64,000 bases of DNA from a virus (IMGVR_UViG_2799112330_000002:346107-410106), one strand, 5' to 3'; shown: positions 1,887 to 63,002, counted from the first letter of the stretch. Numbers and translations: made by a program. The notes: generated by a model from the letters alone, not told the origin.

Positions 1887-1912
1887 CCCAGAAATATTGA
1901 ATTATTTCTGGG
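1887..1912 (+). terminator. stem-loop (cccagaaata/atttctggg) whose loop carries TTGAATT, followed by a T-rich run; overlaps the next promoter
   Basis: 9-bp inverted repeat read directly from sequence after the pncB stop. Confidence 0.5.
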
Positions 1913-1938
1913 ATTTACTATATTATAACTGTAATTAA
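1897..1938 (+). promoter_or_regulatory. conserved phage promoter motif TTGAAT-N16-CTATATTATAACTGTAATTAA
   Basis: Member of a >=12-copy intergenic motif family; sigma70-like -35 and -10 spacing. Confidence 0.5.
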
Positions 1939-1950
1939 AAATATAAGAAT

Positions 1951-2193
1951 ATGTTAAAGTATAAATCATCAGATGTTCAAAAGATGGTTGATATTTTTGC
2001 TAAAATTAGTGAAAATAAAGACAATCAGACAAAAGTAATGGATGAACTTAAGAAATTAGTTGACTATCCAGAAAACGTTATTCTAGAATTCTTGCATTGT
2101 ATAGAAATTCTTAATGATAAAGATGAAACTTATCTTAAGGAAAACTACTGGGGAATTATTGGTTATATTACAATGAGGTTGAATTTTTCTTAA
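1951..2193 (+). CDS. hypothetical protein
   Basis: ORF of 80 aa immediately downstream of the promoter motif. Confidence 0.4.
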   Translation: MLKYKSSDVQKMVDIFAKISENKDNQTKVMDELKKLVDYPENVILEFLHCIEILNDKDETYLKENYWGIIGYITMRLNFS

Positions 2194-2206
2194 ATTATAT
2201 ATTAAT

Positions 2207-2530
2207 ATGTTTGCATTAATTAGAGGTACTGGCATGCTAGTTGGAATCTTTTCCACTAAAGAGCATATGAAAGTTGTCATTGAAGAACTGATTGAAAATG
2301 AATATCAGACTTCAGGAGCACATGGTGATTATAATTTCAGATATATTGAATTTGAAATTAATGAACCTTGGTTTAGTGATGATGAATATAATAAAGAAGT
2401 TGGTCAAGCACTATTCAGTCTGTCAACAATGCATACTGAGTATTTTAAGCATTGTATAAAGACAGATTGGTCTACTGGACAAATTCTTGATATGGATTCA
2501 GACAATACTACAAATATAAATGAAAGATAA
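2207..2530 (+). CDS. hypothetical protein
   Basis: ORF of 107 aa, tightly packed. Confidence 0.4.
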   Translation: MFALIRGTGMLVGIFSTKEHMKVVIEELIENEYQTSGAHGDYNFRYIEFEINEPWFSDDEYNKEVGQALFSLSTMHTEYFKHCIKTDWSTGQILDMDSDNTTNINER

Positions 2531-2532
2531 TT

Positions 2533-2805
2533 ATGAAAGTTTATATTGTATCAACTCAGGTATTTTTCAAAGAGAATGGAATTGAATATGCAATGGCTGT
2601 AGATCTCGATGATGATCTAAAACTATTTAGTGACTATTCTAGAGCTGTTAATGAATATAATTCTGTCATTAATAATCTTAGAAATAATTTTATGGATCAT
2701 GAAGAGGAAATTGTTAGACCATCTGAAGACTTGGGAACAGTTCTATATAATAAGTATGAAACTGTCAGTTATGTTGTCAAACTAACATCTAAAGACGTCT
2801 ATTGA
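2533..2805 (+). CDS. hypothetical protein
   Basis: ORF of 90 aa, abuts neighbours. Confidence 0.4.
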   Translation: MKVYIVSTQVFFKENGIEYAMAVDLDDDLKLFSDYSRAVNEYNSVINNLRNNFMDHEEEIVRPSEDLGTVLYNKYETVSYVVKLTSKDVY

Positions 2806-3240: not shown

Positions 3241-3289
3241 TTGTGAATTTTTATGGGTTAATTACTATATTTATAACGTAATTAAAATT
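3241..3289 (+). promoter_or_regulatory. promoter motif variant (TTGTGAAT...CTATATTTATAACGTAATTAAAATTT)
   Basis: Matches the recurrent intergenic motif, more degenerate. Confidence 0.35.
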
Positions 3290-3298: not shown

Positions 3299-4621
3299 AT
3301 GGGTACATATGTACATTTTTCAATCGGAGAAAATCTTGGCAAAGTTCTTCTTGATATTGCTCAAGAACATATTTTGAATGGAGAACCTCAAGAGGCTATT
3401 GAAACATACGTAAAAAGTTTTAATGGTATGAATGAATCCTATGCATTGCAAATTCTTAGGAACAATTTTGTCATTGAGACTTGTGAAGATGGTGTAAACA
3501 TCAATCTTACAAATGATAAAAACGTAAGATTCCAGAATGCTGAATACATCTATGATTGGCAAAAACTTATGAATGACAAGATCAAAGATTTACAAGGTTA
3601 TGTTGAAAGTTATCATGAAATTGTAAAACAGTTTAATAAGCATTCAAATTATGCTATCTATGATGCAAATATTACAGAAATTGTAAAGCGATATTATGGA
3701 GAGGAAAACATGTCTGATGTTGGTATTCATAATATTGCTGCAAAACTTATTGGAGGAGATGATTTTGCATGGAATCTTTATTCAAATGGTTCTAATGTCT
3801 GGTCTCATTTAGAAGGAGATGTTGAAAGTGGTGATGCTAAACCTTATCAATATGCACTGTATTTCATTGTAAAGTATGTCAATCTTATCAGATCAATGTA
3901 TAAGGATTATGTCAAGTTTGAAAAATCTTATATATGGCTTTTAGATAAGATGTTTATCAAGCGTATTCCATTAGTTGAATCAGATATTGAAAATGTATTA
4001 GACATCATTAAAGAATTTTGTAATCCAAATACAGGATATTATCATCCAATGTGCGACGAAAAGATTACAGATCTTAAAGAGACTATCTATGATGAAATTC
4101 TTAAGACATCTTGGGGAAAGGAATATCTACAGAATGGAATCATAAAGAAGAATATTATGGATGGTTATGATGCTGGTTGGCTGTCTCCAGATGGTGAATT
4201 CTATGGAGGTAATGGTCCAACTTCCGCTATGATTCATATGAATATTGCTGAACAGATCTTCAAGGGAAATAATATATATGCTAATAGAATGGCAAAAGAT
4301 GGTGTATCTATTTGGAGTGGAAGTAATTCACCTGACTATTGGCTCGAAAAGGATGGCTGGGTTAAGATCCATCATAATGATTGTTACGGAGCATTCATTG
4401 GTGAAAGAAATCCTGAAAACAGAACACCAGATTTTCCTTATGCATATAAGCCCACAGATATTCAGATCAAAATGATTTGCGACTATGCAGACAAATTTTA
4501 TGGAGGAAAGTTCTATACAGAAGCAAATACACTTAGTAGAGACACACATCCAGATCCCTTTACAACTTATAAGGTTAGACAAATGGATGAATTCAAATTA
4601 CATGAGATTTTTGGAAGATAA
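3299..4621 (+). CDS. hypothetical protein (440 aa)
   Basis: Long ORF with coding-like composition; no motif recognised. Confidence 0.55.
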   Translation: MGTYVHFSIGENLGKVLLDIAQEHILNGEPQEAIETYVKSFNGMNESYALQILRNNFVIETCEDGVNINLTNDKNVRFQNAEYIYDWQKLMNDKIKDLQGYVESYHEIVKQFNKHSNYAIYDANITEIVKRYYGEENMSDVGIHNIAAKLIGGDDFAWNLYSNGSNVWSHLEGDVESGDAKPYQYALYFIVKYVNLIRSMYKDYVKFEKSYIWLLDKMFIKRIPLVESDIENVLDIIKEFCNPNTGYYHPMCDEKITDLKETIYDEILKTSWGKEYLQNGIIKKNIMDGYDAGWLSPDGEFYGGNGPTSAMIHMNIAEQIFKGNNIYANRMAKDGVSIWSGSNSPDYWLEKDGWVKIHHNDCYGAFIGERNPENRTPDFPYAYKPTDIQIKMICDYADKFYGGKFYTEANTLSRDTHPDPFTTYKVRQMDEFKLHEIFGR

Positions 4622-4651
4622 CAATGTCTATTTTAATTATAAAGTAAAGTT

Positions 4652-4807
4652 ATGACACAAGAGGATAAAGAAAAAATAACAAAGTTTTTGAAGACTAATT
4701 TGCATACCCATACGGATTGGACTGGAACATATGTTGAAACTCAATATAAATGTGAGAGTGTTGAGAAGTTTATTGAAATATTTTTTAATTCAATTGAAGA
4801 AAAATAA
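4652..4807 (+). CDS. short member or N-terminal fragment of the MTQE(D/E)K tandem family
   Basis: Begins MTQEDKEK, preceded by the same gttATGacacaagaggataaa DNA start as 5040. Confidence 0.3.
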   Translation: MTQEDKEKITKFLKTNLHTHTDWTGTYVETQYKCESVEKFIEIFFNSIEEK

Positions 4808-4834
4808 AAATCTAAAATAATAAAATAAGAAATA

Positions 4835-5026
4835 ATGGAAAGCAAATTTAAACTTGGTGACATATTCACTAAAAAACATACACGAGATACAATACCTATA
4901 GAAATATATGAAATATCTTATGATGCAAATGAACCAATATATAAGCTAAAACCCATTAGATTATGTGGTGATGATGTTATATTAGGAGAAGAAGCATTAA
5001 TAGAATTATATAATAAAATCAACTAA
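4835..5026 (+). CDS. hypothetical protein
   Basis: ORF of 63 aa. Confidence 0.3.
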   Translation: MESKFKLGDIFTKKHTRDTIPIEIYEISYDANEPIYKLKPIRLCGDDVILGEEALIELYNKIN

Positions 5027-5039
5027 TATTTAATGAATT

Positions 5040-5504
5040 ATGACACAAGAGGATAAAAAACTATTATTGCAAGATCTTAGTGCAAGGCTGTCGTATGGTG
5101 TAATTGTAAGTACCCCTAAAGGTAATGGTCATCTTTGTACAATCAATCAAACCATATTTGGAAATGAATATGGGGTGAATATTGAAGCCACAAAAAGAGA
5201 CAACTTTAATGATAATGAATGCGACATCAAACCTTATCTTTGCCCAATATCAAGTATGACGAAGAAAGAAACTAAAGAATTATTTAAAGAGATTGGTTTT
5301 GAATTCACTTGTAATACTTGGAGAATTCCCGCACATTATAATTATGAGTTTGCCAAACAGATTAAAGGAATTCCAACTATCACTAATGTTGAATTCGTAA
5401 AGATGATTGATTGGCTTAATGCTCATCATTTTGATTATAGGGGACTTATTGAAAAGGGTCTTGCTATTGCTGTTACAGAAGAAAATAATCCTTATAAAGA
5501 ATAA
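5040..5504 (+). CDS. tandem paralog family A member (MTQEDKKLLLQDLSARL...DWLNAHHFDYRGLIEKGLAIAVTEENNPYKE)
   Basis: Shares N- and C-termini with the two following genes. Confidence 0.5.
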   Translation: MTQEDKKLLLQDLSARLSYGVIVSTPKGNGHLCTINQTIFGNEYGVNIEATKRDNFNDNECDIKPYLCPISSMTKKETKELFKEIGFEFTCNTWRIPAHYNYEFAKQIKGIPTITNVEFVKMIDWLNAHHFDYRGLIEKGLAIAVTEENNPYKE

Positions 5505-5508
5505 AGTT

Positions 5509-5889
5509 ATGATACAAGAAGAAAAACAATTACTGTTGAAGGACCTTAGTGCAAGGTTGATGTATGGAATAATCTGTAAATGCTTACATAGTAATAATGT
5601 TAAAGCAACAGCAATTGATACAGAAGATTCATCAGTATATTATTTTGATTGTGATGAATGGGAATCTATTGAATATTGCAAGCCATATCTCCGTCCAATG
5701 TCTTCAATGACTGATGAAGAGAAAAAAGAATTATTTGAGATTGGTTGTGAAGGAAATATTGAATATCCTTATGGTATGTACTTTAGATGTCAAGACTGGC
5801 TTAATGCTCATCATTTTGATTATCGTGGACTTATTGAAAAGGGTCTTGCTATTGCTGTTACTGAAGAAAATAATCCTTATAAAAAATAA
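5509..5889 (+). CDS. tandem paralog family A member
   Basis: ATG at 5509 gives MIQEEKQLLLKDLSARL...; the C-terminal 30 aa are almost identical to the previous gene. The track ORF extends upstream into the previous gene in a different frame. Confidence 0.5.
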   Translation: MIQEEKQLLLKDLSARLMYGIICKCLHSNNVKATAIDTEDSSVYYFDCDEWESIEYCKPYLRPMSSMTDEEKKELFEIGCEGNIEYPYGMYFRCQDWLNAHHFDYRGLIEKGLAIAVTEENNPYKK

Positions 5890-5893
5890 AGTT

Positions 5894-6304
5894 ATGACAC
5901 AAGAAGAAAAACAACTATTGATCCAAGACCTTTCAACAAGGTTGCCATACAAAACGTATGTTAAAACAACAAAAGGCATTGGCTATGTCTATGCTATAAA
6001 TACCTCTCAATTAGTTGAATTAAGCGTTGCTAATGATTCTGAATATTGGTCAGAAGTATTTAATATTGAGAAAATAAAACCATATCTCCGCTCAATGTCA
6101 AGTATGACTGAGGAAGAGACTATTGAATTTATAAATCTTACAGATAGTATTATAAAATTTGTAAATAAGCATTATGCGGTATTAAGTCTTCAACAAATTG
6201 ACTGGCTCAATGTACATCACTTTGACTATCAGGAATTAATTCCAAAAGGTCTTGCCATTGAGGTAACAAAAGATAATAATCCTTATGAAAAACAATACAG
6301 TTAA
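5894..6304 (+). CDS. tandem paralog family A member
   Basis: ATG at 5894 gives MTQEEKQLLIQDLSTRL...DWLNVHHFDYQELIPKGLAIEVTKDNNPYEK. Confidence 0.5.
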   Translation: MTQEEKQLLIQDLSTRLPYKTYVKTTKGIGYVYAINTSQLVELSVANDSEYWSEVFNIEKIKPYLRSMSSMTEEETIEFINLTDSIIKFVNKHYAVLSLQQIDWLNVHHFDYQELIPKGLAIEVTKDNNPYEKQYS

Positions 6305-7007: not shown

Positions 7008-7051
7008 ATTGAATTTTCTGAAGATTGTTCTATATTATAATTGTAATAATT
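7008..7051 (+). promoter_or_regulatory. conserved promoter motif TTGAAT-N16-CTATATTATAATTGTAATAATTAA
   Basis: Motif family. Confidence 0.5.
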
Positions 7052-7641: not shown

Positions 7642-8532
7642 ATGGACTACGCAAAAGTTTTTGAAACAATGGTTAATGAGACACAGAAATATCTTGAGTC
7701 AAATAATCTTCAAGCAATGATTTTGGGTATTTCTGGCGGATTAGACTCAACAGTTACAGCTGCAATTTGTCATGAGGTTGAGAAACGAAATCCAGAGCTC
7801 AAGTTTATTGGTATTTCTCTTCCATGTTCCTCAAATTCTGAAGAAGAAAATGATTCCGCAAAAATTTGCATGAAGGCATTTTGTAAGTCAGGACAATGGT
7901 GGACAGAGAATCTTCAGAAGGAATATATGCTTATGCGAGCTACTTGTTCACAAAGACATCTTATGACAACAATTGGTCAGGGAAATATCAAGGCTCGTCT
8001 TCGTATGACATATCTTTATAATGAAGCTAATTATTTCAACGGTCTTGTAATGGACACTGACAATCTTACAGAGCATTATCTTGGATTCTTCACAATTCAT
8101 GGAGATGTTTGTGACTTCAATCCAATCGGTGGCCTTTGGAAGCATGAAGTATATTATCTTGCAGAGTATCTTTATACAGATTATTATGATGCTCCGTTTG
8201 GTCCTGATGGAGAAAGACATTTGGCTTTAGAACATGCTTTGAAGATCACTCCTACAGATGGAAACGGAGTAAATGATCTTGGAGACATGGGACAGATTGC
8301 TCCTGAATTTGCTTATTGTAAGAATATGGATGCTTATGAAAAGGTAGACAATATTATCAGGACATATCTTTATGGCATTCAGAGTCATCCTGAGGTATTT
8401 CAGGCAAGCATGCAGACATTATATGATACATATACACCAGAAACAGTAGATGGTATTATCAGAAGAATAAAATCTACAGAATACAAACGTAAGAAACTTC
8501 CTATTGTAGTTGGCAGAAAAAAATATGAATAA
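7642..8532 (+). CDS. nadE: NH3-dependent NAD+ synthetase
   Basis: PP-loop ISGGLDSTV (SGGxDS) near the N-terminus; 296 aa, typical NadE size. Confidence 0.7.
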   Translation: MDYAKVFETMVNETQKYLESNNLQAMILGISGGLDSTVTAAICHEVEKRNPELKFIGISLPCSSNSEEENDSAKICMKAFCKSGQWWTENLQKEYMLMRATCSQRHLMTTIGQGNIKARLRMTYLYNEANYFNGLVMDTDNLTEHYLGFFTIHGDVCDFNPIGGLWKHEVYYLAEYLYTDYYDAPFGPDGERHLALEHALKITPTDGNGVNDLGDMGQIAPEFAYCKNMDAYEKVDNIIRTYLYGIQSHPEVFQASMQTLYDTYTPETVDGIIRRIKSTEYKRKKLPIVVGRKKYE

Positions 8533-10015: not shown

Positions 10016-10363
10016 ATGTCTCAGAATGCAATTAATACTTTTAACATTTCTATCTATCAAGAGTTATTGAAAAGATATGATTATGGATTAAGACAAATGA
10101 AGAAGTATAATATGATCTATGATAAGATGAGAGGATATTATACTGCTAAAGACATAAAGTATATTATGGGAGTATATAAAGATGATCTCATAGACATAAT
10201 AAACAGTAATTTGTTCAGTCTTTTTGTTCCTGACAAAGTAAAGAAAGATATATTGAAATTTATTCCAATTATTGAATCAACATATTTACAGAAGCATTAT
10301 GATTCAGTAATTGACAAGTTTGAAAAGATTAAATCAATGTTTTTCATAACAATAAACCCTTGA
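10016..10363 (+). CDS. hypothetical protein
   Basis: ORF of 115 aa followed by a strong hairpin. Confidence 0.45.
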   Translation: MSQNAINTFNISIYQELLKRYDYGLRQMKKYNMIYDKMRGYYTAKDIKYIMGVYKDDLIDIINSNLFSLFVPDKVKKDILKFIPIIESTYLQKHYDSVIDKFEKIKSMFFITINP

Positions 10364-10388
10364 TAGTACGCTATCAAGGGTTTTTATT
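10354..10388. terminator. bidirectional intrinsic terminator (13-bp stem aaacccttgatag / ctatcaagggttt, loop tacg)
   Basis: Perfect inverted repeat flanked by A-run upstream and T-run downstream; lies between convergent genes. Confidence 0.7.
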
Positions 10389-11350: not shown

Positions 11351-11430
11351 AATATTTGATTGAATTTCAGAATTATTTTACTATATTAAATATATATAAT
11401 TTTTAATACATAACTTAAATAATATATAAT

Positions 11431-14380: not shown

Positions 14381-14406
14381 CTCAAAATTCACATATAAAA
14401 TATATA

Positions 14407-14438
14407 AATCTGGAAATGCAAGTTTCCAGATTTTTTTG
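14407..14438 (+). terminator. intrinsic terminator (aatctggaaa / tttccagatt plus T7)
   Basis: 10-bp stem followed by ttttttt. Confidence 0.65.
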
Positions 14439-14467
14439 TCTTTATATTCAATTAAATTAAACAATAA

Positions 14468-14510
14468 TTGAATTTTTCAAAAATGTAACTATATTATTAA
14501 TGTAATAATA
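14468..14510 (+). promoter_or_regulatory. conserved promoter motif
   Basis: TTGAAT-N16-ACTATATTATTAATGTAATAATA. Confidence 0.5.
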
Positions 14511-17544: not shown

Positions 17545-17547
17545 TAA

Positions 17548-17590
17548 TTGAATTTTTTGCAAACATAACTATATTAATATTGTAATTAAA
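17548..17590 (+). promoter_or_regulatory. conserved promoter motif
   Basis: TTGAAT-N16-ACTATATTAATATTGTAATTAAA. Confidence 0.5.
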
Positions 17591-18030: not shown

Positions 18031-18032
18031 TA

Positions 18033-18075
18033 TTGAATTTTTCTTATAAATAACTATATTATAATTGTAATTATT
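18033..18075 (+). promoter_or_regulatory. conserved promoter motif
   Basis: TTGAAT-N16-ACTATATTATAATTGTAATTATTG. Confidence 0.5.
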
Positions 18076-19212: not shown

Positions 19213-20691
19213 ATGAACTACGAAGAATTTAACAAAGGTTGTTTTGAAGAAGCAAAAAGACTTTATAAAACAGCTAATGCAGATCAAAGATATGTACTTG
19301 AAAAACTTTTCCCAGAACTCAAAGAGTCCGAGGATGAGAGGGTAAAGAAAACATTAATTGAATATTTTAATGCTTATCCTAAAGATTATTATGGGGAACT
19401 TAAAAAGAGTCATATTCTTGCTTGGCTTGAAAAGCAAGCTGAGAATAATAAATGGAAACCATCTAAAGATGAAATGGATGCTTTATATGGATTGGCATAT
19501 ATAACCAATAAAATGGATGACAAAAAAGATGAAGCGATTACAAAATTATATCAAGACTTAAAAAGGGAATTCTTTAATGGAGTTAGTTATGAGAATATGT
19601 TTCCTTCAAGTCCGGTAGATGCTCCAATAATAAATGGAAACCAAGATGAACAGAATCCCCCTGATAATGTTGAACTAAAGTTTAAGGTTCATGATTGGGT
19701 AGTGTTTAATAATAAACATCAATCTACTTATCAAGTAGAAAAAATAGAAGATGGGTATTATATTCTTAGACATACACATGGTGGAACATTTAGAGTATGT
19801 GTACTACATGATGAAAGTCTTAGACTTTGGGATATTACCAAAGATGCAAAGGATGGTGATGTGCTTTCATTTAAGAATGATATATGTGGTATAATTATTT
19901 GTAAATCTCCTACTGATTATGATACAGGAAGTTATTGCAGACTTGTAAATGATAATTTTATAAATATAGAAGAAAGTGGATGGGATTCTACATTACTTGT
20001 TCCAACTACCAGAGAACAGTGTGTTCTTTTATTTGAAAAAATGCATGAAGCAGGATATGAATGGGATGATATGAATAAAAAGTTGAAAAAAATTGAGCAG
20101 GCGTCTGTTGATAAAGTTAAACCTATATTTAATGTTGGTGATAAAATACAACACTTAAAAGATTGTGGGACTATTATGACTATTGAAAAAATAGAAAATG
20201 ATGAATATATATTTGCCAACAACATGGGCCATACTACTATTGAAAACGGAAATAAATGGTATCTTGTAGAGCAGAATCCTATTTGGGGTGAAGAGGATGA
20301 ACATAGGATTAAAGATATTGTTTATTTCCTTGAAACAGCTAAGAAACATTATGCAAGTACGGAAGAATTAGATGCTTGTATTAATTGGCTCAAATCCCTC
20401 AAATATATTAATAAACATTCATATACATTTGATGAAATAGATAAAGAAATATTGAATGCCGCTATTTTATTTGCTATGAATAGTACTGATGAATTTGCTT
20501 GCAATGGTGTAAATAAAGAAGATGTTATTGATTGGCTCAAATCCCTCAGACCTCAGAACCATTGGAAGCCAAGTGATGAGCAGATGAGAATACTTGACCT
20601 TGCAATAAGAGGTGGAATAAACCACGGAACGAGAGAAGAAACTACTCTTGTATCATTACTTAATGATTTAAAGAAACTAAAGGAGGAGTAA
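19213..20691 (+). CDS. family B repeat protein (FPEL(K/T)ESEDE ... LWDI.KDAKDGDVL ... PxT(K/R)EQ..L(F/M).KM.EAGYEWD ... NWLKS(L/I)K)
   Basis: Shares N-terminal, internal and C-terminal blocks with 31029, 32600 and 37220. Confidence 0.55.
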   Translation: MNYEEFNKGCFEEAKRLYKTANADQRYVLEKLFPELKESEDERVKKTLIEYFNAYPKDYYGELKKSHILAWLEKQAENNKWKPSKDEMDALYGLAYITNKMDDKKDEAITKLYQDLKREFFNGVSYENMFPSSPVDAPIINGNQDEQNPPDNVELKFKVHDWVVFNNKHQSTYQVEKIEDGYYILRHTHGGTFRVCVLHDESLRLWDITKDAKDGDVLSFKNDICGIIICKSPTDYDTGSYCRLVNDNFINIEESGWDSTLLVPTTREQCVLLFEKMHEAGYEWDDMNKKLKKIEQASVDKVKPIFNVGDKIQHLKDCGTIMTIEKIENDEYIFANNMGHTTIENGNKWYLVEQNPIWGEEDEHRIKDIVYFLETAKKHYASTEELDACINWLKSLKYINKHSYTFDEIDKEILNAAILFAMNSTDEFACNGVNKEDVIDWLKSLRPQNHWKPSDEQMRILDLAIRGGINHGTREETTLVSLLNDLKKLKEE

Positions 20692-20892
20692 CTATGAAGA
20701 AATACATATCACCAAATACAGAAATAGTAGTATGTGGGCATTCAACAATTCTTACTGCAAGTATCATAGCAAGATGTAATACTTGGTGTAAGATGTGGCA
20801 TATATGTCGTGATAGAGAAAATGGTAAACCTTGTGAAGACTTTATATTAAAATAACTTAAACAATTAAAGAAACTAAAGGAGGAAGAAAATT

Positions 20893-21246
20893 ATGATTAC
20901 CGAAGATTATGTATCTGTTGATGTAGCTAAGCTACTCAAAGAAAAGGGGATGGATAAATCTTATTTCAAACATTATGTACAAAAAAACAATAATGATGGA
21001 ACAAGTGAAGCAGTAATTGTTTGTACTCATCAGGCTGCTATGAAGTGGTTGAGAGAAAAGCACAACATCTGCATCTCCATATATCCTGATAAAGGAAACA
21101 GATATGAAGCGGTTCTTTACAACATTAAAGATGATGTAGAAATTATACTACAATCTTTTGGGATTTATGGTAGTCATATCTTTGAAGATTCTTATGAAGA
21201 AGCTGTTGAAGCTGCATTGAAATATTGTCTTGAAAATTTGATTTAA
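20893..21246 (+). CDS. family C paralog (constant MI(T/K)EDYVS(F/V)(E/D)VAKLLKEKG N-terminus, AMKWLRE core, E(E/Q)A(V/I)EAALKY.LENLI C-terminus)
   Basis: One of four copies. Confidence 0.5.
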   Translation: MITEDYVSVDVAKLLKEKGMDKSYFKHYVQKNNNDGTSEAVIVCTHQAAMKWLREKHNICISIYPDKGNRYEAVLYNIKDDVEIILQSFGIYGSHIFEDSYEEAVEAALKYCLENLI

Positions 21247-21484
21247 TTTTTCTGTATTTGTTTCTATTTTATATTTATAATATAAATAACAAGTTATGGT
21301 TTGTAAGAATATTTCAACACAAATAGAATATAGGTATACATTTGTTGAGAATGGAAATGTAAGACTTGTAGATAAAGATTCAAATGAAATTATTGAGTCT
21401 TATGAGAATTGGTGTGCAGATTATTATATAACAGATAAATGGAGAAATACACCCCGATAATAAAAATACATAAAAATTACATTA

Positions 21485-21916
21485 ATGGAGGTTAAAGACT
21501 TTAGTTTAAAAGATAATGAAATATTGACTGCCAAAGATTTAGAATTGGGAGATTGGGTATATAATGAAAAGAATGAGATATGTAAAGTACATTCAATATC
21601 TCAGATATTTGATTCTAATATTCATCTTGATAATTATTCAAAACCTAATGATGGAACATTTGAGTTTGCTTTTGAAGTCTATCCGATTCCACTTACTGAA
21701 GATATCTTTAATAAGAATTTTAGTGATGATATAATATCTTGGCGTTCTGTAGATTATCCAACAAAATTATTTGTTATTATATATACAGAAGAAGGAACTG
21801 ATGCAAATGATGTAATAATAACAATAGAATACGTTCATGAACTTCAACATTTATTAAGGCTTCTTAAGATTGAAAAGAAAATTGTATTAGATTTTTTAAT
21901 AGACAATAATAATTAA
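21485..21916 (+). CDS. hypothetical protein
   Basis: ORF of 143 aa. Confidence 0.4.
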   Translation: MEVKDFSLKDNEILTAKDLELGDWVYNEKNEICKVHSISQIFDSNIHLDNYSKPNDGTFEFAFEVYPIPLTEDIFNKNFSDDIISWRSVDYPTKLFVIIYTEEGTDANDVIITIEYVHELQHLLRLLKIEKKIVLDFLIDNNN

Positions 21917-21923
21917 TATATAT

Positions 21924-22406
21924 ATGAGTACCAAGAACAAACTACACAAAATTTCAGTAGATTATGATATGAATAAAGATCTATTAGAAGGTGTGCATAA
22001 CTGGTGTTATAATAACATTTCATATACAGACTTAGTAAAAATACTTCGTAAAATTAATACAAATCGTCACAAAATAGTTCATGAGTTCACATTAGAAAAG
22101 AACTATTTGGTCAATGACACTATTGATAATATTATTGAATATCTAAAAGATTTGAAAGAAAAAGGATATGATTCAATTGGAGAAGAATGGTCTGGTTATG
22201 AAGATAATTATTTTGTTGCATATAAGCATGATGATGAAGAAACCGATGAAGAGTATTACAAGAGACTTGCACATGAAGCAGATCATCTATATATAGAATT
22301 GAGAAATAATCTAAAGAAAAAAGAAGAAAAAATCAATGAATTGAATAAGTTAAAAGAACAGATCAAAAATATAGAAAATGAATTATTGAATTATGAGGAA
22401 ATATAA
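21924..22406 (+). CDS. hypothetical protein with coiled-coil C-terminus
   Basis: ORF of 160 aa. Confidence 0.4.
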   Translation: MSTKNKLHKISVDYDMNKDLLEGVHNWCYNNISYTDLVKILRKINTNRHKIVHEFTLEKNYLVNDTIDNIIEYLKDLKEKGYDSIGEEWSGYEDNYFVAYKHDDEETDEEYYKRLAHEADHLYIELRNNLKKKEEKINELNKLKEQIKNIENELLNYEEI

Positions 22407-22552
22407 GACATTTTGTTACCCAGAAAGTGTTATTAGATTTTTGGATGAATTAGAAAACAAGGGAGTTTTACCACAAAATATTCATATTACTGAATCTGAT
22501 AGAATCTTCACCGTTTTCTATAAAGACAAACCAACAAGAACAAATTTATAGA

Positions 22553-22828
22553 ATGATTGATATGAAAGAGAAAATACTTAAAGAAATTGATAGTTTTGTC
22601 AACATATGCTATACAATGCTCAGGATCGGCGCAGGTAATTTTGCTAAAGAGAATTTTCCAAGACTAGTAGAGAATTTCTATGATGAAAACAGATCTGATG
22701 AAGAAAACTATAAAGCAATAAAAGATATGTTTGAATTGAATATTGTATTTAATCAGGAAACCAATGAAGAAGTTGCAAAAACTATTCAAATATTCTTAGA
22801 AGGTTGGTATGACAAAATTAAGATATAA
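22553..22828 (+). CDS. hypothetical protein
   Basis: ORF of 91 aa. Confidence 0.4.
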   Translation: MIDMKEKILKEIDSFVNICYTMLRIGAGNFAKENFPRLVENFYDENRSDEENYKAIKDMFELNIVFNQETNEEVAKTIQIFLEGWYDKIKI

Positions 22829-22833
22829 TTAAT

Positions 22834-22860
22834 CCAGAAATTGAATTTTCTGGATTTTTT
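22834..22860 (+). terminator. hairpin ccagaaa-TTGAATT-ttctgg plus T7; the loop is the -35 box of the next promoter
   Basis: Read from sequence; an identical element occurs at 34521. Confidence 0.5.
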
Positions 22861-22882
22861 TCTATATTATAATATGTAATAT
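22841..22882 (+). promoter_or_regulatory. conserved promoter motif
   Basis: TTGAAT-N16-TCTATATTATAATATGTAAT. Confidence 0.5.
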
Positions 22883-22896
22883 TAACATATTTAATT

Positions 22897-23295
22897 ATGA
22901 TTAAAGAAGACTATGTATCATTTGAAGTAGCCAAATTACTTAAAGAGAAAGGGTTTGATGAATATTGCTTGAAAAATTATTGGAGTTCTGATAAAGAACT
23001 TCATGATTGGAAATGGGAATTAAGCTATAAACGAAATAGTGATGGAAATCGTAATACAAAAGATTGTGCAGCACCAACACTTCAAATGGCAATGAAGTGG
23101 TTGAGGAAGGAACATAACATATTATTATTTCCCCTTCCAGCACAAGAAAATGGAAAACTTGTATATCTTGTAGAAGTTTGGACTTGGAATGAAGAAGAAG
23201 GTATATATGAATGTGCTTATGCTCCTATGCCAAGAAAAGAACCAGAGCAAGCTATTGAAGCTGCTATTAAATATTCACTTGAAAATTTGATTTAA
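22897..23295 (+). CDS. family C paralog
   Basis: MIKEDYVSFEVAKLLKEKGF...AMKWLRKEHNI...EQAIEAAIKYSLENLI. Confidence 0.5.
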   Translation: MIKEDYVSFEVAKLLKEKGFDEYCLKNYWSSDKELHDWKWELSYKRNSDGNRNTKDCAAPTLQMAMKWLRKEHNILLFPLPAQENGKLVYLVEVWTWNEEEGIYECAYAPMPRKEPEQAIEAAIKYSLENLI

Positions 23296-23313
23296 AAAAT
23301 AGGAGAATAGATT

Positions 23314-23502
23314 ATGGCACAAGAAGATAAAGATCTGTGTAAGACATGTGAACATTATTGGAAAGATTTTCCATACCCATTGGAATATGTTGTATCTCAT
23401 TGTGAAATTCTTGATAAAAGGGATGGCTTATCTGCAAATATGAATGAAAAGGTGCCTTATCCTTGTTTGAAATGCCCATTTAATAGTTATAAGAAAAAAT
23501 AA
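23314..23502 (+). CDS. small Cys-rich (CxxC...CxxC) protein
   Basis: CKTCEHYW ... CLKCPF. Confidence 0.35.
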   Translation: MAQEDKDLCKTCEHYWKDFPYPLEYVVSHCEILDKRDGLSANMNEKVPYPCLKCPFNSYKKK

Positions 23503-23506
23503 TTAT

Positions 23507-23902: not shown

Positions 23903-23908
23903 ATAACT

Positions 23909-24133
23909 ATGGCAACAGGTAGAAGACTATTAGAGGAATCAATGCCTCACAATTATAAGCAAGGATGTCTATATCCTACACACTATTTAGAGACTGAAGA
24001 GAAGCCTTATGGAGGAACAAAGAAACGTAATGTCAGACATGTTCGTAAGATGGGCCAATCAAAAGTCAGAAAACAGTTAAAGAAGGATTTAGAAAAGGAA
24101 TTAGAAAATATTGAAGAGGAGACAAAATTATGA
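23909..24133 (+). CDS. small basic protein
   Basis: Lys/Arg-rich ORF of 74 aa. Confidence 0.35.
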   Translation: MATGRRLLEESMPHNYKQGCLYPTHYLETEEKPYGGTKKRNVRHVRKMGQSKVRKQLKKDLEKELENIEEETKL

Positions 24134-39756: not shown

Positions 39757-39772
39757 ATGATATAACAAATAA

Positions 39773-42478: not shown

Positions 42479-42561
42479 ATAAAAATGTACAAATTATATT
42501 TAATATATAATTAAAAATAAAGAGAAATACTCATATAATAAGTACTTCTCTTATATTTTAT

Positions 42562-43894: not shown

Positions 43895-43987
43895 AATTAA
43901 AATTTAATATATAATTATTATGTGTTTTTCTAATTAACATCTTTATTTATTTAATAATATTATTTTATTGTGATTTTTGAGTAATTT

Positions 43988-46776: not shown

Positions 46777-46874
46777 TAAGTGTCTTTTTTAGTATATTTT
46801 TTTGATAATTATAAAATAGTTAAAGAATGTTTAAAAATTCAATGATTTTATTAACATATTTTACTTAGTTTATA

Positions 46875-46915
46875 TTGAATTTTTCTGATATTTTACTATA
46901 TTATTATTGTATATT
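46875..46915 (+). promoter_or_regulatory. conserved promoter motif (the track ORF begins at this TTG; probably not coding here)
   Basis: TTGAAT-N16-ACTATATTATTATTGTATATTAATAA. Confidence 0.5.
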
Positions 46916-46937
46916 AATAACAACAAATACATATAAT

Positions 46938-55323: not shown

Positions 55324-57876
55324 TTATATTATTGTGATATTTGTAGGTAATTTCCAAATTGATCTGAGTGTATCTGCACAACATTCATTAATTGTAATTG
55401 TCAATTTATCTGAAGATGATGCTAAATCACCAGCTATATTAATGTCAAGTTTATTGCCCATAAATAATTTTAATTTTGTTTCTACTCGTATACCTGTTTC
55501 AGTTTCTGATGTACTTGCAATTGTTATAAATTTTGATAATGCATTTCCGTTTGAAACAAGAAACATTGGTGTATCATTAACAGTAATAATATCATTAGTA
55601 TTTGAATAAATTTCAACATTTCTAGATGATGATATTCCTAAATATTTCAATAGCTTACTAAGTATAATTAAATCATTGTATTTATAATAATATACAACAT
55701 TATCAAATCTTGTTGATAATATAATATTACAATACATATTTAATCCATCAATATTGGTAGAACTCTCATTTGTTATACTACGAACTAATTTACGCATATC
55801 TTGTTCAATAGTTTCAAGATTAATAACTGAAAATAATGCACTAGTATTATTATTATTTGCTGTTACTTCAAAATATTTGAATTGAGGATTGAATGAAGTT
55901 GAATAATATATATTTCCATCACTTAAAGTTCTAATATCCCATTTAAGATTATGGAAATATGACATGCCAGATACATTTAGTTCTTGTTTAGCATTTAATC
56001 TACCAACAACATCTGTTACATTAAAATCAAGACTTAGTTTATCATGACGTTTAAGTTGTGTCTTGCCTTTAGCATTTGTTAATGAATATTCTCCTAAGTT
56101 AATATTATGAGTGCCAGTTCCTATATGAAATGTAGATTTATCAAAATTATCAAATGATGTTCCAATATAACCATAATATGTTACTCCATAATTATCAAAA
56201 GAAAGAATATTTTGTCTGTTTATAATATTTGAATCTCTCTGGAGGAATTCACTCATATCAAAAACAGGAACATTATAATTAGGAATATATTCATTATAAT
56301 AGTTTGTTCTGTTGTTTTCTACATATTTATAAATAGAATTAGTTATAGTATTAATTCCGTTTGATTCATTATTATTTATTTGTAGAAATTGTGAAGATGA
56401 AGTATTATGTACTTGTTTAATTTCTTTACCAGCAGTTCCAGTAAAACTATTTACATATCTTAAAGAGAAATTAAGATTGTTGATATATCTATTATCATAA
56501 TCAGAACCACTTATGTTTTGTAATACTGGATATAGGTGTTGAGAATTCTCATCATGCTTATTTCCTTTTAAGATCTGATCAAATATCAAATAAGTGAACA
56601 AGAAGTTATCAGGTTCTATTTGATTGATTAATGATAATTGGTATTGAATAATATCATTTAATGTTGAGAGATTATTAAATACTAATGCATATGTGTCATC
56701 AATCATTAATGGATCATAAGGTTTATCGGTATTTGATCCATTCCATTTCCATAATGTTATAATTTGACCATTTGATAATGTATTAAGTAATATATTGTCA
56801 GGTAATCCGATTTGAGTAACATTACTAATAAGCATTATCAATGAATTCTTAAGTAATGCTGCTTCATCTATTGCAATATTATTTGGTGATATATAAGGTA
56901 ACTTAAATTGACAGCTATACCCATTATTGTCTATCCATTTAATGAAAGCAGTATGAGTTGAACTTGTAACTTCTTTATTAGTATAATCATTAAGACCAGA
57001 TAGTATTTTAACTTGTTGACTATCATTAGTTTGTAATGCAACAACAATATTAAGATTAATGGCATTCTTCGCTTCTGCACTTATACCACTATCTATATCA
57101 TTAATCCACCATACTTTATTTTCCGTATTATTACTGCTATTTGTAATATAAGGTAAAGAATACTTTGTAAAGCTAATCTCATCATTATTATCAATTTCAA
57201 AACTATAGGCAGAAAACTTTACATAATTATTATGTTGCCATACTACATTAACACAATTTTCATCATATGATGGAATTTCACCAGAATTTGTCATTAACTG
57301 ATAATAGACAAATATTGGATCATTAGAACCATATATTAGAGTATCATTAATACCGTTTTGAATAAAAGATATTCTAAAATCAAGATAAATATAAGAATCA
57401 AATATTGTTTCATTATCATTAACATTTTTAGCTATTTGACTAAATTCATTATTATATATCTCTTTTAATAAGTTTTCTACTATTGCTATTTTTTTCTTTA
57501 ATATGACAGAAGCATTATCTATTTTATTGTTCAAAATTGAACTTGCAAACAACGGAGCATTATCATTATAGTTATCTTCATTAATGACAAACTTAATACC
57601 ATTAGAAATTGACTTACATCTTATATTTACCATCCTATTATCAGTGATTTCATTTAATATATTATTGTAAGCAACAAATTCTGGTTCAATATAAGCTGCT
57701 AGTTCTGTAAAAATTTCTCTTAATGTAAATGATGAAAACTTTACTAATTCTTCTCTTGTATTTCTTTGTCCAAGATTAGCTAAAGCTTCATTATAGTATT
57801 TTGTAATATAATTTGAATTTTCTAGATAAGATAAAACTTCTTGATCTGTCAATCCATTGATATTCTTTATAGCCAT
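55324..57876 (-). CDS. large Asn/Ile/Tyr-rich hypothetical protein (850 aa), probable virion component
   Basis: Uninterrupted long ORF in the late block; no catalytic motif recognised. Confidence 0.55.
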   Translation of the reverse strand: MAIKNINGLTDQEVLSYLENSNYITKYYNEALANLGQRNTREELVKFSSFTLREIFTELAAYIEPEFVAYNNILNEITDNRMVNIRCKSISNGIKFVINEDNYNDNAPLFASSILNNKIDNASVILKKKIAIVENLLKEIYNNEFSQIAKNVNDNETIFDSYIYLDFRISFIQNGINDTLIYGSNDPIFVYYQLMTNSGEIPSYDENCVNVVWQHNNYVKFSAYSFEIDNNDEISFTKYSLPYITNSSNNTENKVWWINDIDSGISAEAKNAINLNIVVALQTNDSQQVKILSGLNDYTNKEVTSSTHTAFIKWIDNNGYSCQFKLPYISPNNIAIDEAALLKNSLIMLISNVTQIGLPDNILLNTLSNGQIITLWKWNGSNTDKPYDPLMIDDTYALVFNNLSTLNDIIQYQLSLINQIEPDNFLFTYLIFDQILKGNKHDENSQHLYPVLQNISGSDYDNRYINNLNFSLRYVNSFTGTAGKEIKQVHNTSSSQFLQINNNESNGINTITNSIYKYVENNRTNYYNEYIPNYNVPVFDMSEFLQRDSNIINRQNILSFDNYGVTYYGYIGTSFDNFDKSTFHIGTGTHNINLGEYSLTNAKGKTQLKRHDKLSLDFNVTDVVGRLNAKQELNVSGMSYFHNLKWDIRTLSDGNIYYSTSFNPQFKYFEVTANNNNTSALFSVINLETIEQDMRKLVRSITNESSTNIDGLNMYCNIILSTRFDNVVYYYKYNDLIILSKLLKYLGISSSRNVEIYSNTNDIITVNDTPMFLVSNGNALSKFITIASTSETETGIRVETKLKLFMGNKLDINIAGDLASSSDKLTITINECCADTLRSIWKLPTNITII

Positions 57877-60800: not shown

Positions 60801-62354
60801 TTTATTATATACATATTTGCATGTCTTGAAAGTACTAAGATAATCAGCTGAAGATATATAACTAAATTCTGGAAGTACAAACAATGAGAACTTATCTATT
60901 CTTGGATAGTCCTTTTCATTATTATATATCTTATTGAAATCATATAGAATGCCTTTATAGTATAACTTGTTGTCTTCATTTACATCTGCCCAGTATTCAT
61001 CATGAGCAAATATGTCTTCATTTTTGTTTAATATATTGAAGAATGAAGATATATGATTGTTACTATAAAGCTTCTTGTATTTTTCTGTTTGACTTATCAG
61101 AACATTTATATTATTATATCTTTCAACAAAGTCAAATTTTAGATCATATCCGTTAGAAAGATTATTATTGTTTACATTTTCACATATATTGTATATTGGA
61201 GTATACATTAATGGAAAGTCTTTATACATATAGAGAGAATTCTGATTCTTAGAGAATGCAAAATTAGCATTTATGATATATGGATTGTCATCATCAGAAT
61301 ACTTTAGTTTCCATCTGTTATAGTTCTTGTTGACAGTATTTATGAATTTGAAATTAGTGAGTTGTGATTCATTGAACGCTGGAAAACCGACATTCATAAT
61401 GTTTATGTCAGTATCATAATAGTCAATATTTCCGAATATATTCATTCTATATATTTTTTCATAATAAGAATTATAGTTGTCTGAAAAACTATAGAAAGGT
61501 AGTTCTTCACCATTCATGAACCATTTTCCAGATATCATGATTGATCCTACACTATATGCTTGCAACTCATAACTATTCAACAATTCATATGGGTTAAACA
61601 TAAAACTTAATGCAAGAATCTGCTTCATCATAATTCTGTTTCTTTTGAACCCATTATTCAATAAAGCATCAAAGTCATTTATTGGGAGATACTTATTATA
61701 TATTAACGCACTAATATTGTCTTCTATCTTTAAAAATCCTCCTCTAAGTAAATTGATTCCATAATATATGTTTTTATATGAACTTGAAAGATAGATCACT
61801 TTATCATCAATCTTATTGACATATCTATAGACATAATCATGAAGATAGTTTTCTTTTATTGTATCATCTAAATATATCTTAAGCTTCTTCTCTTTTATAA
61901 GATTGTTTTTCTTGAATATACATGTTATTTCAAAATACAAATCATTCAGATCTTTTGCATCATCAATATAGATAGGCGCAAAGAACTCTACTTGCTTACC
62001 ATATCGGATATAAGATATTCTTTTACAACCATAGAGAAAATCATTGTTTGTGTCATTTATAGGATTTGCATAATCAAGAATAGGGATATTTACCTTGGAA
62101 TAGTTGAAACATGTATTATAGAATGTATCTGAATAATATCTATAAAAATTCTTTACATCATATTCAAAAGCATTATTTTTAAGATTCACATCAATATTAT
62201 TGTCATATAGAGAATCTGTCAAACTTATCAATTTTGCTCTTTGTATACTACAATTATATATGTTGTTGCTTTCCATCTTGTAGTCATCACAAAAACAAGA
62301 TAACTTCATGTTTCCTGATAGACTTGGTATAACCCTTAATAGTGGTTTTAACAT
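57882..62354 (-). CDS. giant Asn/Tyr/Ile-rich hypothetical protein (1490 aa), probable virion component
   Basis: Uninterrupted 4.4-kb ORF; heads the minus-strand late operon. Confidence 0.55.
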   Translation of the reverse strand: MLKPLLRVIPSLSGNMKLSCFCDDYKMESNNIYNCSIQRAKLISLTDSLYDNNIDVNLKNNAFEYDVKNFYRYYSDTFYNTCFNYSKVNIPILDYANPINDTNNDFLYGCKRISYIRYGKQVEFFAPIYIDDAKDLNDLYFEITCIFKKNNLIKEKKLKIYLDDTIKENYLHDYVYRYVNKIDDKVIYLSSSYKNIYYGINLLRGGFLKIEDNISALIYNKYLPINDFDALLNNGFKRNRIMMKQILALSFMFNPYELLNSYELQAYSVGSIMISGKWFMNGEELPFYSFSDNYNSYYEKIYRMNIFGNIDYYDTDINIMNVGFPAFNESQLTNFKFINTVNKNYNRWKLKYSDDDNPYIINANFAFSKNQNSLYMYKDFPLMYTPIYNICENVNNNNLSNGYDLKFDFVERYNNINVLISQTEKYKKLYSNNHISSFFNILNKNEDIFAHDEYWADVNEDNKLYYKGILYDFNKIYNNEKDYPRIDKFSLFVLPEFSYISSADYLSTFKTCKYVYNKDIDKNEQLSFNDTNIRNIDFYKFYNDNSEFITNNETIQLTDQKYPNVKQYLSNEYYDFNDIYVLSHLYNVSNSLYDQYDKEIIDGYRVLNIYNKDNILNEVYKDLAELYYLTDKSNDSGMFFRERRVMSIESLYWAKDLLFFSIYPNKTLYNLIDNYNLLYNTTQLKVNVYLKSKFVQGKDFLDFLRKTKQSLDNPQSNADVALSDFIKLFFANSNEESPSFEFHKYYYSSGLYNTEDNIIYTIPVFNEINDLTCNYGDNYDGDDNIIWVDPYNIKYVYRKYYGQQLTDDDISIISSKSKEFYCKFLNLTHLYLYFKKLYKTNINTTISLENERQILNTIYINILTAHNIVVDRSNNTNFNNSLIVLNKYINITDLGIISFNDLINYIEYNDNGYFSLSKKYFIDMIPIYDTIVYNQAGYSENVKYNATITDSYIKLINKNNNEVYYITPNIEIGVKIKDDENNYNYIKYNLYTDSELLKPTGKKIQITNTIDVDTILDFDLCFKKKMMRLNKELYGLILAINKYNYKDLYLYHLSNYDSVNHELYYNTIYFEDESSAWIPIYEDEAEVTRSITALLNDRHLELPLEPYFNDVWEEEQINTRIYSDYFLNNITEIQTSDSDISHISHVYRYNNHNIDFFINNDDVKIASNINTDIILNYDNVDDIVTDKNKLYQSNTNMLCYTYNGTNYGFYIIKSSFDNTKHTLNIKNDLYQNINCVDYIDSIPVEDIYNDTSYELLNKVYPHIIPYLKTSNIVKTALDNIEVIIQPNNYKMTNHHRQYETNSTYTLYYLNDTNNIELIRYFDNITPYLYKTNYLITYNLYFKNTERIIEPELSQKNISYIIPDNPSMMYLSIFNGISYFDINHNTHKFIPTEYKYLNDNIYYNIPNEIEVRCSQTFHSEKELAEWQNNEKNVFNIFFNYIYLRNSNLNDYSENERNNKILFLYNKYKIEYYSQRELKLHTYTLRIKYKLL

Positions 62355-62519
62355 CTTATTAAACTTTTTCTATATATATTATATAATTAAAAATAATTTT
62401 TCAAATTCACTATCAAAAGAAAATTTACTATTAATGTGAAAAAATATGAAAGAATTGTGAATTTTTAATAGCCAAATTACTAATTTATAATTATTATTAA
62501 TCAAATATAAAACAAATAT

Positions 62520-62603
62520 CGCGGTCTAGTCTAATGGTAAGATGCAAGGCTCATAACCTTGAGACAGAAAATGCAAGTCCTGGTTCGATTCCAGGGGCCG
62601 CAA
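62520..62603 (+). tRNA. tRNA-like gene, anticodon CAT (Met/fMet or Ile2), atypical: C1.A72 mismatch and a 17-nt unpaired extra region
   Basis: Hand-folded. Acceptor cgcggtc/ggccgca, U8, D-arm with GG, anticodon arm caagg-ctCATaa-ccttg, T-arm cctgg-ttcgatt-ccagg. An extra agacagaaaatgcaagt lies between the anticodon and T arms with no stem. No CCA encoded. Confidence 0.45.
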
Positions 62604-62916
62604 CTAAAAAATTAAGTAGTCATAATAAGAGTTACATCGTAAATAACAATTGTATAGTATTAATAGATCCAGTATTTTTGTCTCTTATTAGTAATTCTCT
62701 TAATTAAAAATATTTATTATTATATAGAAAAAGAAAACATAAAAATCAAAAGAATATGAAGAATCTATTTTCACATAACAGCCAAATTAGTTTTTCAGAA
62801 CGACCAAGTTTTGAAGGATGCGGCATGTGGTCTATTAGATGCTTGAATATATATTCTGGAGATATGGAAGTATAAGTTATATATAATAATACAAAAACTA
62901 AACTATATATAGAATG

Positions 62917-62956
62917 AATCTCCAGAGCTTAATAAAAAGTTTTGGAGATTTTTTTA
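62917..62956 (+). terminator. weak terminator (aatctcca...tggagatt plus T6) after a 39-aa ORF
   Basis: 8-bp stem with a long loop. Confidence 0.35.
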
Positions 62957-62965
62957 TATAAAAGA

Positions 62966-63002
62966 TTGAATTTTTCTAAAATGAAACTATATTAATAATA
63001 CA
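62966..63002 (+). promoter_or_regulatory. conserved promoter motif upstream of tRNA
   Basis: TTGAAT-N16-ACTATATTAATAATACAT. Confidence 0.45.

Follow-up and report, generated by a model that had tools for sequence, protein, structure and literature searches.

The stretch of viral DNA analyzed here (the window; 64,000 nucleotides [nt], IMGVR_UViG_2799112330_000002:346107-410106) has a GC content of about 30% and carries, on its + strand, a recurrent element of about 45 nt, copies of which head about 15 groups of genes. The operons behind the element encode a nicotinamide adenine dinucleotide (NAD) salvage set (NAPRTase, NAD synthase and a NUDIX protein), a ligase, RNase H-like, radical-SAM and flavodoxin proteins, small open reading frames (ORFs) and tRNAs. 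Weaker variants head the operon of a family-B DNA polymerase (PolB; locus L038) and an SbcCD-like operon. The large genes on the - strand are without the element.

The + strand element consists of three blocks: A-TTGAATTTT (block 1), a T-rich spacer, aCTATATTA (block 2), N4 and TGTAAT (block 3). Alignment of the copies on TATATT gave the consensus A-TTGAATTTT / about 11 variable T-rich nt / aCTATATTA / taA. / TGTAAT-tAa, and the C preceding TATATT was invariant across the aligned window copies. The window contains 13 strong and 2 weak copies, all on the + strand (Table 1). The 12 copies listed in a preliminary description of this DNA were all recovered, with an offset of 0 to 2 nt. A strong copy with TTGAAT at 11360 and two weak copies at 2179 and 21242, detected by scanning with a position weight matrix (PWM), were absent from that list. 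The weaker copy that had been proposed at 49731 reads TTGTCA-N9-CTATATTA, which is the core alone and not the bipartite element, and the full consensus as originally written matched nowhere in exact form, so it is usable solely as a degenerate motif.

The PWM, 46 nt long, was built from the copies with a 16-nt spacer and was applied with a cut-off of at least 10 bits and Markov shuffles as the control. It matched 14 times on the + strand and not at all on the - strand, whereas 0.08 matches were expected from the shuffles. The best shuffle score was 14 bits, compared with 30 to 50 bits for real copies. A repeat finder blind to the motif returned the element as the two largest direct-repeat families of the window, D1 (9 copies of 44 nt) and D2 (6 copies of 63 nt).

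Each copy lies between genes and points toward the gene downstream, in agreement with the gene-oriented, promoter-like placement and fixed bipartite spacing proposed earlier. In the window, block 1 starts 3 to 90 nt past the preceding stop codon, and the conserved G of block 3, located exactly 7 nt past the last T of TATATT, is followed by the next ATG after 17 to 48 nt (166 nt for the copy at 7009). When + strand upstream gaps of 45 nt or more are counted, 14 of 25 contain the element. TTGAAT and TATATT were separated by 16 nt in 12/12 window sites and in 99 of 106 sites of the clade of related phages described below, and a control with the boxes in reversed order was flat. The distance from the G to the ATG had a median of 21 nt, and 94% of the sites fell within 10 to 60 nt.

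A search with the strict pattern TTGAATTTT-N12-CTATATTA-N4-TGTAAT retrieved 37 stretches on about 20 IMG/VR contigs, including contigs of 376, 435, 255, 200 and 170 kb. The nucleotide identity of these contigs to the window is patchy (65 to 78%), indicating that they belong to related but distinct jumbo phages. The same consensus was obtained from 61 unique sites in these relatives, with TTTGAAT commoner as block 1 and with an A-rich leader, and related IMG/VR contigs, the longest of them 435 kb, keep the element at about 100 sites. At the site orthologous to 46875 on contig L022, the blocks are kept while the spacer and flanks have drifted. A looser search of the relatives, which required blocks 1 and 2 and left block 3 free, yielded 130 unique sites. 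At most one mismatch to TGTAAT was found at +11 to +16 in 48% of them, compared with 1.3% by chance. Because block 3 was conserved in a search that did not require it, the downstream block is a real part of the element, as had been suggested. The expected copy ahead of the tRNA cluster was also confirmed (62966, before tRNA-Glu), and the order of promoter, leader and tRNA is common to contig L026. The element is class-specific, clade-wide and highly non-random.

The Lak megaphages and the 462-kb huge phage LR756500 were found to be without the element. The strand bias of CTATATTA in Lak phages was attributed to coding bias. Contig L321 exceeded the clade threshold of 22 bits; it was discarded as a false positive, being a conventional T4-like phage that has a Shine-Dalgarno (SD) site and is unrelated to the clade.

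In some copies, the element is fused with a terminator-like hairpin of which TTGAAT forms part. This arrangement, described earlier for the copies at 1897, 22841 and 34528, was found at these three positions and also at 36037, but not at the other 11 copies. The hairpins at 22831-22856 and 34518-34543 have identical 10-bp stems, the hairpin at 36029-36049 consists of 9 AT-rich pairs, and the T-run after each of the four fused hairpins fills the spacer. Three relatives have different stems with the same TTGAAT loop and a T-run before CTATATTA. The differing stems around the same loop provide covariation-like support for a functional fusion. A hairpin with a T-run at a gene end, as in an intrinsic terminator, is the arrangement of a minority of sites (4 of the 15 window copies and 3 to 5 of the 130 sites in relatives). 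The natural mini-palindrome AAA-TTGAAT-TTT and a spacer in which T-richness is the sole constraint make such a fusion easy.

A cassette of about 45 nt is identical between the copies at 22831 and 34518, and contig L166 begins inside the copy at window position 34529. Repeated promoter cassettes probably fragment the assemblies of such phages. Elsewhere in the window, hairpins of 12 to 13 bp with T-runs on both strands are located at 10354-10383 and 39771-39798 and have the look of bidirectional terminators; the second lies at the convergent junction of the + and - strand blocks.

Table 1. Copies of the element and associated features (window coordinates unless a contig is named)
Feature	Position	Strand	Block 1 start	Score (bits)	Remarks
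Terminator-like hairpin	1885-1914	+			ATCCCAGAAATA-TTGAAT-TATTTCTGGGAT, 12 bp, about -18 kcal/mol; after NAPRTase gene; exact loop TTGAAT is block 1
Promoter copy	1896-1938	+	1897	39.7	Before 80-aa gene at 1951; TTGAAT (1897-1902) is the hairpin loop
Weak, doubtful copy	2178-2220	+	2179	10.2	Overlaps 3' end of gene 1951-2193
Variant copy	3242-3285	+	3243		GTGAAT, 17-nt spacer, ..CGTAAT; before 440-aa gene at 3299
Promoter copy	7008-7050	+	7009	49.0	Heads operon with NAD synthase
Promoter copy	11359-11401	+	11360	30.4	Block 3 degenerate; before 324-aa gene at 11431
Separate terminator-like hairpin and T-run	14406-14433	+			35 nt upstream of copy 14468; adjacent, not fused
Promoter copy	14467-14509	+	14468	46.3	Heads NAD-dependent DNA ligase operon
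Promoter copy	17547-17589	+	17548	45.0	Block 1 begins 4 nt past preceding stop codon
Promoter copy	18032-18074	+	18033	43.8	
Weak variant	21241-21284	+	21242	19.2	TTTAAT ... CTATTTTA
Fused terminator-promoter	22831-22882	+	22841	38.8	Hairpin AATCCAGAAA-TTGAAT-TTTCTGGATT, T7 filling spacer, then CTATATTATAATATGTAAT
Promoter copy	30707-30749	+	30708	46.7	
Fused terminator-promoter	34518-34569	+	34528	50.1	Stem identical to 22831 stem
Fused AT-rich hairpin and promoter copy	36029-36078	+	36037	47.3	TTTGAAAAT-TGA-ATTTTCAAG and T-run
Related divergent variant	46795-46842	-			TTGAATTTTT ... AACTATTTTATAAT, longer spacer; before SbcD/SbcC-like operon
Promoter copy	46874-46916	+	46875	45.0	
Promoter copy	62965-63007	+	62966	34.8	Block 3 degenerate; 47 nt before tRNA-Glu (63035-63125)
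AATTATATATTAAAT box	42498-42512, 43902-43916 (- strand); also 62374-62388, 57652-57666				Often after hairpin and T-run
Copies of the architecture on 42-45% GC contigs	L332 286-4800; L337 9945-12239; L340 436-3530; L339 522; L336				L336: two copies, - strand

The origin of the window was assessed from its proteins and translation signals. A megablast search of 8 kb against GenBank phages gave no match. Window proteins were found on cow-rumen metagenome contigs (ERR2027895, PRJEB21624), some of which are in the 0.2- to 1-Mb class. The PolB encoded just upstream of the window shares 22 to 23% identity with T4 gp43-type enzymes, and gp46/gp47-like SbcCD genes are located within the window. The NAD-dependent ligase is closest to that of Prevotella Lak megaphages (35% identity), and a BspA-type leucine-rich repeat protein is also encoded. 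A 1,490-aa window protein had no relatives in phages or IMG/VR. The group 2 jumbo phages of Iyer et al. are T4-like and include phages of Bacteroidota such as Lak-B8; they have no RNA polymerase (RNAP) of their own, use the host core polymerase and always encode sigma factors, some of them RpoD-like, and gp33 (PMC7824862). The gp43-type PolB places the phage in this RNAP-less group.

SD-like tetramers precede 7 of 106 ORFs, and A-peaks occur upstream of the start codons at -3 (0.67), -6 (0.57), -12 (0.60) and -13 (0.65). The same A positions are characteristic of Bacteroidota, which initiate translation without an SD motif (PMC6847099). The scarcity of SD motifs, the A-peaks and the presence of copies on contigs with host-like GC from Bacteroidaceae, Muribaculaceae, Prevotella and Bacteroidales indirectly indicate a Bacteroidota host. 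An uncultured T4-like group 2 rumen jumbo phage of a Bacteroidales host would be the best explanation of the source.

The host phylum matters because the sigmaA of Bacteroidota reads promoters with a -33 TTTG and a -7 TAnnTTTG box, not E. coli-type promoters. The preliminary description had labeled TTGAAT and TATATT as the -35 and -10 boxes of an E. coli-type sigma70 promoter, and this label was not upheld. Generic TTGACA-N16-18-TATAAT matches numbered 146, compared with 131 ± 11 expected, and 136, compared with 136 ± 12 expected. The element copies score 9/12 against the generic consensus, the same as about 100 chance sites. Since generic matches occur at the shuffle level, the resemblance to the E. 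coli consensus is of almost no weight, and it is the phage-specific extended sequence that marks the sites. Two boxes separated by a fixed spacer of 16 to 18 nt, as in bipartite promoters generally, are present.

Two registers were compared with the Bacteroidota consensus. In register A, TATATT occupies -12 to -7, the TTG is located 19 nt upstream and the conserved G is +1. This spacing (TTG-N19-TATATT) is the correct one, within the 18 to 21 nt of Bacteroidota -33/-7 promoters, and block 1 has the TTTG form in 77% of the relatives' sites. On contig L337, one of the 42-45% GC contigs described below, an ordinary gene has a canonical TTTG-N18-TACCTTTG promoter with the spacer ...GAAAAAAAGTTCG, and the element copy reads TTG-N18-TAATATTA with the spacer AGAAAAGTTGA, so that both geometry and spacer flavor match. 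The same spacing of the two gives direct support to register A. In register B, a perfect TAnnTTTG is found 5 nt further downstream in about 45% of the relatives' sites. This canonical reading was set aside, as the -33 box is then 24 nt away and neither the window copies nor the 42% GC copies have the TAnnTTTG box. Exact TAHHTTTG was found in 0/13 window copies and was not enriched in the intergenic DNA of the window.

Like a Bacteroidota sigmaA(Bfr) promoter, the element has a TTG 18 to 19 nt upstream of a TA..TT box; unlike it, the element has an extra invariant C and an extra TGTAAT block and lacks T-6 and G-5. In place of the sigma70 label, it is best read as a putative promoter that combines Bacteroidota geometry and a variant -7 box with a further block at the predicted start site. 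The extra blocks may be recognized in a phage-specific manner.

A promoter is by far the best reading of the element. It is probably a class-specific pre-replicative (early/middle) promoter of a group 2 rumen jumbo phage, with the host sigmaA as its most probable reader. In the proposed mechanism, the three blocks would lie on one face of the DNA, with blocks 1 and 2 at the Bacteroidota -33 (TTG) and -7/-10 (TA..TT) positions and block 3 covering the predicted start site. A sigma70-family holoenzyme on the host core RNAP would bind blocks 1 and 2 via sigma domains 4 and 2, respectively, and transcription would start at or just past the conserved TG. The outcome would be short, A-rich leaders without an SD motif, with the median of 21 nt given above. 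In densely packed regions, the promoter would carry the upstream operon's intrinsic terminator as an overlay, with block 1 as the hairpin loop and the 3' arm and T-tract as the sequence-tolerant spacer.

As the reader, the host sigmaA holoenzyme ranks first, and its likelihood is put at close to even. It is favored because of the phage type, the geometry, the early-type gene set and the precedent of a strong host-read Bacteroides phage promoter. This promoter, P_BfP1E6, is used in synthetic biology, contains UP elements, is far stronger than host promoters and is read by the host RNAP in uninfected cells. Its -7 box is the canonical TAnnTTTG, in which it would differ from the element. The occurrence of blocks 1 and 2 in two unrelated kinds of Bacteroidales mobile element, the phages and the 42-45% GC contigs, suggests a common reader, which could be the host enzyme or a transferable sigma factor.

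The best-known parallel is the T4 early promoter. T4 early promoters occur as near-identical strong copies that head small early operons, are conserved beyond the hexamers and also serve the tRNA cluster. The element resembles them in its many extended copies before early operons and tRNAs, and gp43-, gp46- and gp47-type genes are present here. It differs in that the host phylum is another one, the consensus is unrelated and the -7 box departs from the host consensus. A phmmer search with T4 gp55, RpbA, ModA/B, Srd, Srh, Mrh and MotB detected no homologues in the sampled clade DNA; MotA and AsiA were not among the queries.

Several points weigh against a pre-replicative promoter read by the host sigmaA. 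Promoter activity and the start site are deduced from sequence, as is the identity of the sigma factor or polymerase that reads the element. The -7 box is without T-6 and G-5, both of which are nearly invariant in Bacteroidota sigmaA promoters. About 23 positions, including the C before TATATT, are near-invariant, which is more than is usual in host promoters and hints at a dedicated reader. On the 42-45% GC Bacteroidales contigs, the element stands directly before a compact sigma gene, the classic layout of an autoregulated sigma factor. The clade genomes were sampled in part, and a phage sigma factor or RNAP could lie elsewhere in them. Finally, the Jug huge gut phages, which have been called T4-like and may be distant relatives, encode RpoC; the supplements of the Jug preprint contained nothing on RNAP or sigma factors.

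The strongest of the alternatives, a serious one although less likely than the host sigmaA, is that a dedicated phage or mobile-element sigma factor with domains 2 and 4 redirects the host core RNAP, in which case the element would be a middle-class promoter orthogonal to the host sigmaA. The non-canonical -7 box and the unusually long invariant sequence are consistent with this, and sigma factor genes are reported for every group 2 jumbo phage (PMC7824862). The link to a compact sigma factor came from a scan of 596 Gb of species-representative genomes with the strict pattern, which gave five matches. Two of these (L334, from a Clostridia metagenome-assembled genome [MAG] from goat ileum, and L335, from Methanobrevibacter RUG12316) are misbinned clade contigs with 61 to 97% amino acid identity to clade ORFs. 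Two others are contigs of 42% GC from Bacteroidaceae and Muribaculaceae bins, with 4 and 2 copies heading consecutive small genes. The fifth, L333 (Rickettsiales MAG, 22% GC), has one 32.7-bit copy and no gene in common with the clade. As a side observation, L334 and L335 sit in GTDB representative genomes of unrelated bacterial and archaeal MAGs.

On contig L332, one copy is directly followed by a sigma-like gene (PHROG 351, E = 2e-12; weak match to Sigma70_r1_2). A search of 5.8 billion proteins gave 11 relatives of its product (P0001 to P0011), with 78 to 97% identity, from Prevotella and Bacteroidales MAGs. A 199-aa relative contains region 2, Sigma70_r4 and a region 4.2 helix-turn-helix, indicating a compact sigma2+sigma4 factor. 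The same architecture was found before sigma genes and a few neighbors on L337, L339 and L340. On L337, only the sigma genes have the element, while a neighboring gene has the canonical TTTG/TAccTTTG promoter. The layout would suit an autoregulated alternative sigma factor. The contigs with the compact sigma factor also hold PD-(D/E)XK and GmrSD-type nucleases, insertion sequence transposases and a GP88-family protein. Two copies on L339 (about 540-600 and 3375-3440) have a GC-rich insert of about 45 nt, CTTTG..GGCAAAGCGTCACGCTAACGCGATGCCGAGCG, between block 2 and a CGTAAT block; at the predicted start site, this insert may form a leader structure or have arisen as a small inserted element.

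In the phages themselves, no such factor was detected. A hidden Markov model of the compact sigma factor gave no match in the window, its flanks or 76 clade loci, and the compact sigma family is absent from IMG/VR. Neither the Pfam tables nor the best 25 of 37 PHROG families showed a sigma or transcription family for the window proteins (the PHROG screens, made via alignments, covered the best 25 of 37 to 106 families). A dedicated sigma factor would also need a separate immediate-early class with host-type promoters, against which stands the lack of TAHHTTTG enrichment in intergenic DNA, and the element heads nearly all operons of a 45-kb block of small early-type genes. The middle promoters read by SPO1 gp28 and phiEco32 gp36 are likewise class-specific, bipartite and off the host consensus, and they drive replication genes. 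The element differs from these systems in that no cognate sigma factor was identified in the clade, the only linked one being on the unrelated 42-45% GC contigs. A stronger version, in which the class is orthogonal to the housekeeping sigma factor and combines a host-type -33 box and geometry with a private -7 box, CTATATTA, read by the compact mobile-element sigma2+sigma4 factor, is quite improbable.

It is very unlikely that the element is an early promoter for a virion-packaged phage RNAP of the phiKZ/AR9 type that acts independently of the host RNAP. The early promoters of AR9, MarsHill and phiKZ are likewise AT-rich, highly conserved stretches of about 10 nt, with a conserved purine as the known or predicted start a few nt downstream and with short leaders, and many copies stand before early operons of a jumbo phage. 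The early consensus of AR9, AAATATATATTAT-(6N)-G+1 (PMC5312081), and the early motif of MarsHill contain the core of the element, TATATTAT, in identical form. In phiKZ, an upstream T-rich motif accompanies an extended -10 box, and the leaders measure 31 to 40 nt (PMC8244752). The RpoC of the Jug phages and three giant proteins of unknown function in the window also fit such a polymerase. However, the window, 20 kb of its flanks and about 610 kb of clade loci yielded no beta/beta'-type gene or DxDGD signature, which makes a virion RNAP unlikely. Neither a catalytic-type motif nor a clade homologue was detected for the giant - strand proteins, and Pfam, PHROG and PDB sequence searches with them gave no match. 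Two scans of IMG/VR DNA for the beta' motif NADFDGD gave at least 120 loci each, mostly in giant-virus bins; among the matches listed, the loci from the first scan (at least 120) are without the element, and the loci from both scans share no genes with the clade. The G follows TATATTAT after 4 nt instead of the 6 nt of AR9, and an A stands 6 nt downstream. An obligatory -35-like box at a fixed spacing is foreign to promoters of virion RNAPs, a T4-like phage with a gp43-type PolB belongs to the RNAP-less group 2, and the 42-45% GC elements have the same promoter and no RNAP in the loci obtained from them.

Least credible of all is a non-promoter role as a site for a regulator or recombination protein, an RNA leader or processing signal, or a duplicated miniature repeat: the cassette shared by copies 22831 and 34518, the break of L166 exactly at a copy and the predicted position of the conserved block 3 within the transcript would fit it, but strand and gene orientation are strict, all copies are intergenic at a tight distance from the start codon, the blocks are conserved while spacer and flanks diverge (between genomes of 65 to 78% identity and on unrelated 42% GC contigs), and the bipartite spacing equals that of the canonical promoter on the same contig (L337).

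Several other features of the locus were recorded. The NAD set comprises NAPRTase, NAD synthase, a NUDIX hydrolase and an isochorismatase/nicotinamidase-like protein (window 671-1861, 7642-8532 and 35178-35837; L038 9257-9907) and presumably resembles the NAD-reconstitution module used against NAD-depleting defenses. The early region contains tandem and dispersed paralogous families (19213-20691, 20877-24486, 24842-26278, 31029-33958, 37220-37744 and 4638-5944), and the paralogs form the repeat families D3 to D5, D7 to D9, D11 to D15, D17 and D19. The tRNA array has at least 20 genes (window 62520-63995; L041 1148-9835) and extends 10 kb outside the window on its right side; the tRNAs for Met, Pro, Ser, Gln, Gly and Leu are duplicated, and one ARAGORN call has an irregular anticodon loop. 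An 891-aa - strand protein of unknown function has near-identical internal repeats (40232-40412 and 41165-41345; 181 nt, 96% identity) and a second internal repeat at 40673-40931 (112 nt, 79% identity). Several of the large - strand genes have the AT-rich box AATTATATATTAAAT 25 to 35 nt before the ATG. This box is weakly enriched (13 matches, compared with 7.2 ± 2.8 expected) and may be a late-class promoter.

Among uncultured jumbo phages that infect gut or rumen Bacteroidales, we know of none with defined promoters. The element is a class-specific phage promoter consensus of a fairly ordinary kind, distinguished by the compact terminator overlay and the departing -7 box. The consensus lets operons and the early and late halves of the genome be annotated from sequence alone, and the repeated cassettes probably explain some assembly breaks. 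The element is also a candidate expression part of about 45 nt, available in a version with a built-in terminator, for Prevotella and Bacteroides, in which strong promoters are scarce. The departure of the -7 box from TAnnTTTG, together with the link to a compact sigma factor, poses a concrete question on how phages direct the host polymerase. If the compact sigma factor is the reader, one transcription language would be common to rumen jumbo phages and to chromosomal or mobile islands, of 42-45% GC, in Prevotella, Muribaculaceae and Bacteroidaceae, and such nuclease-rich islands could be switched on by jumbo-phage infection or interfere with it, as a satellite or an infection-sensing defense island.

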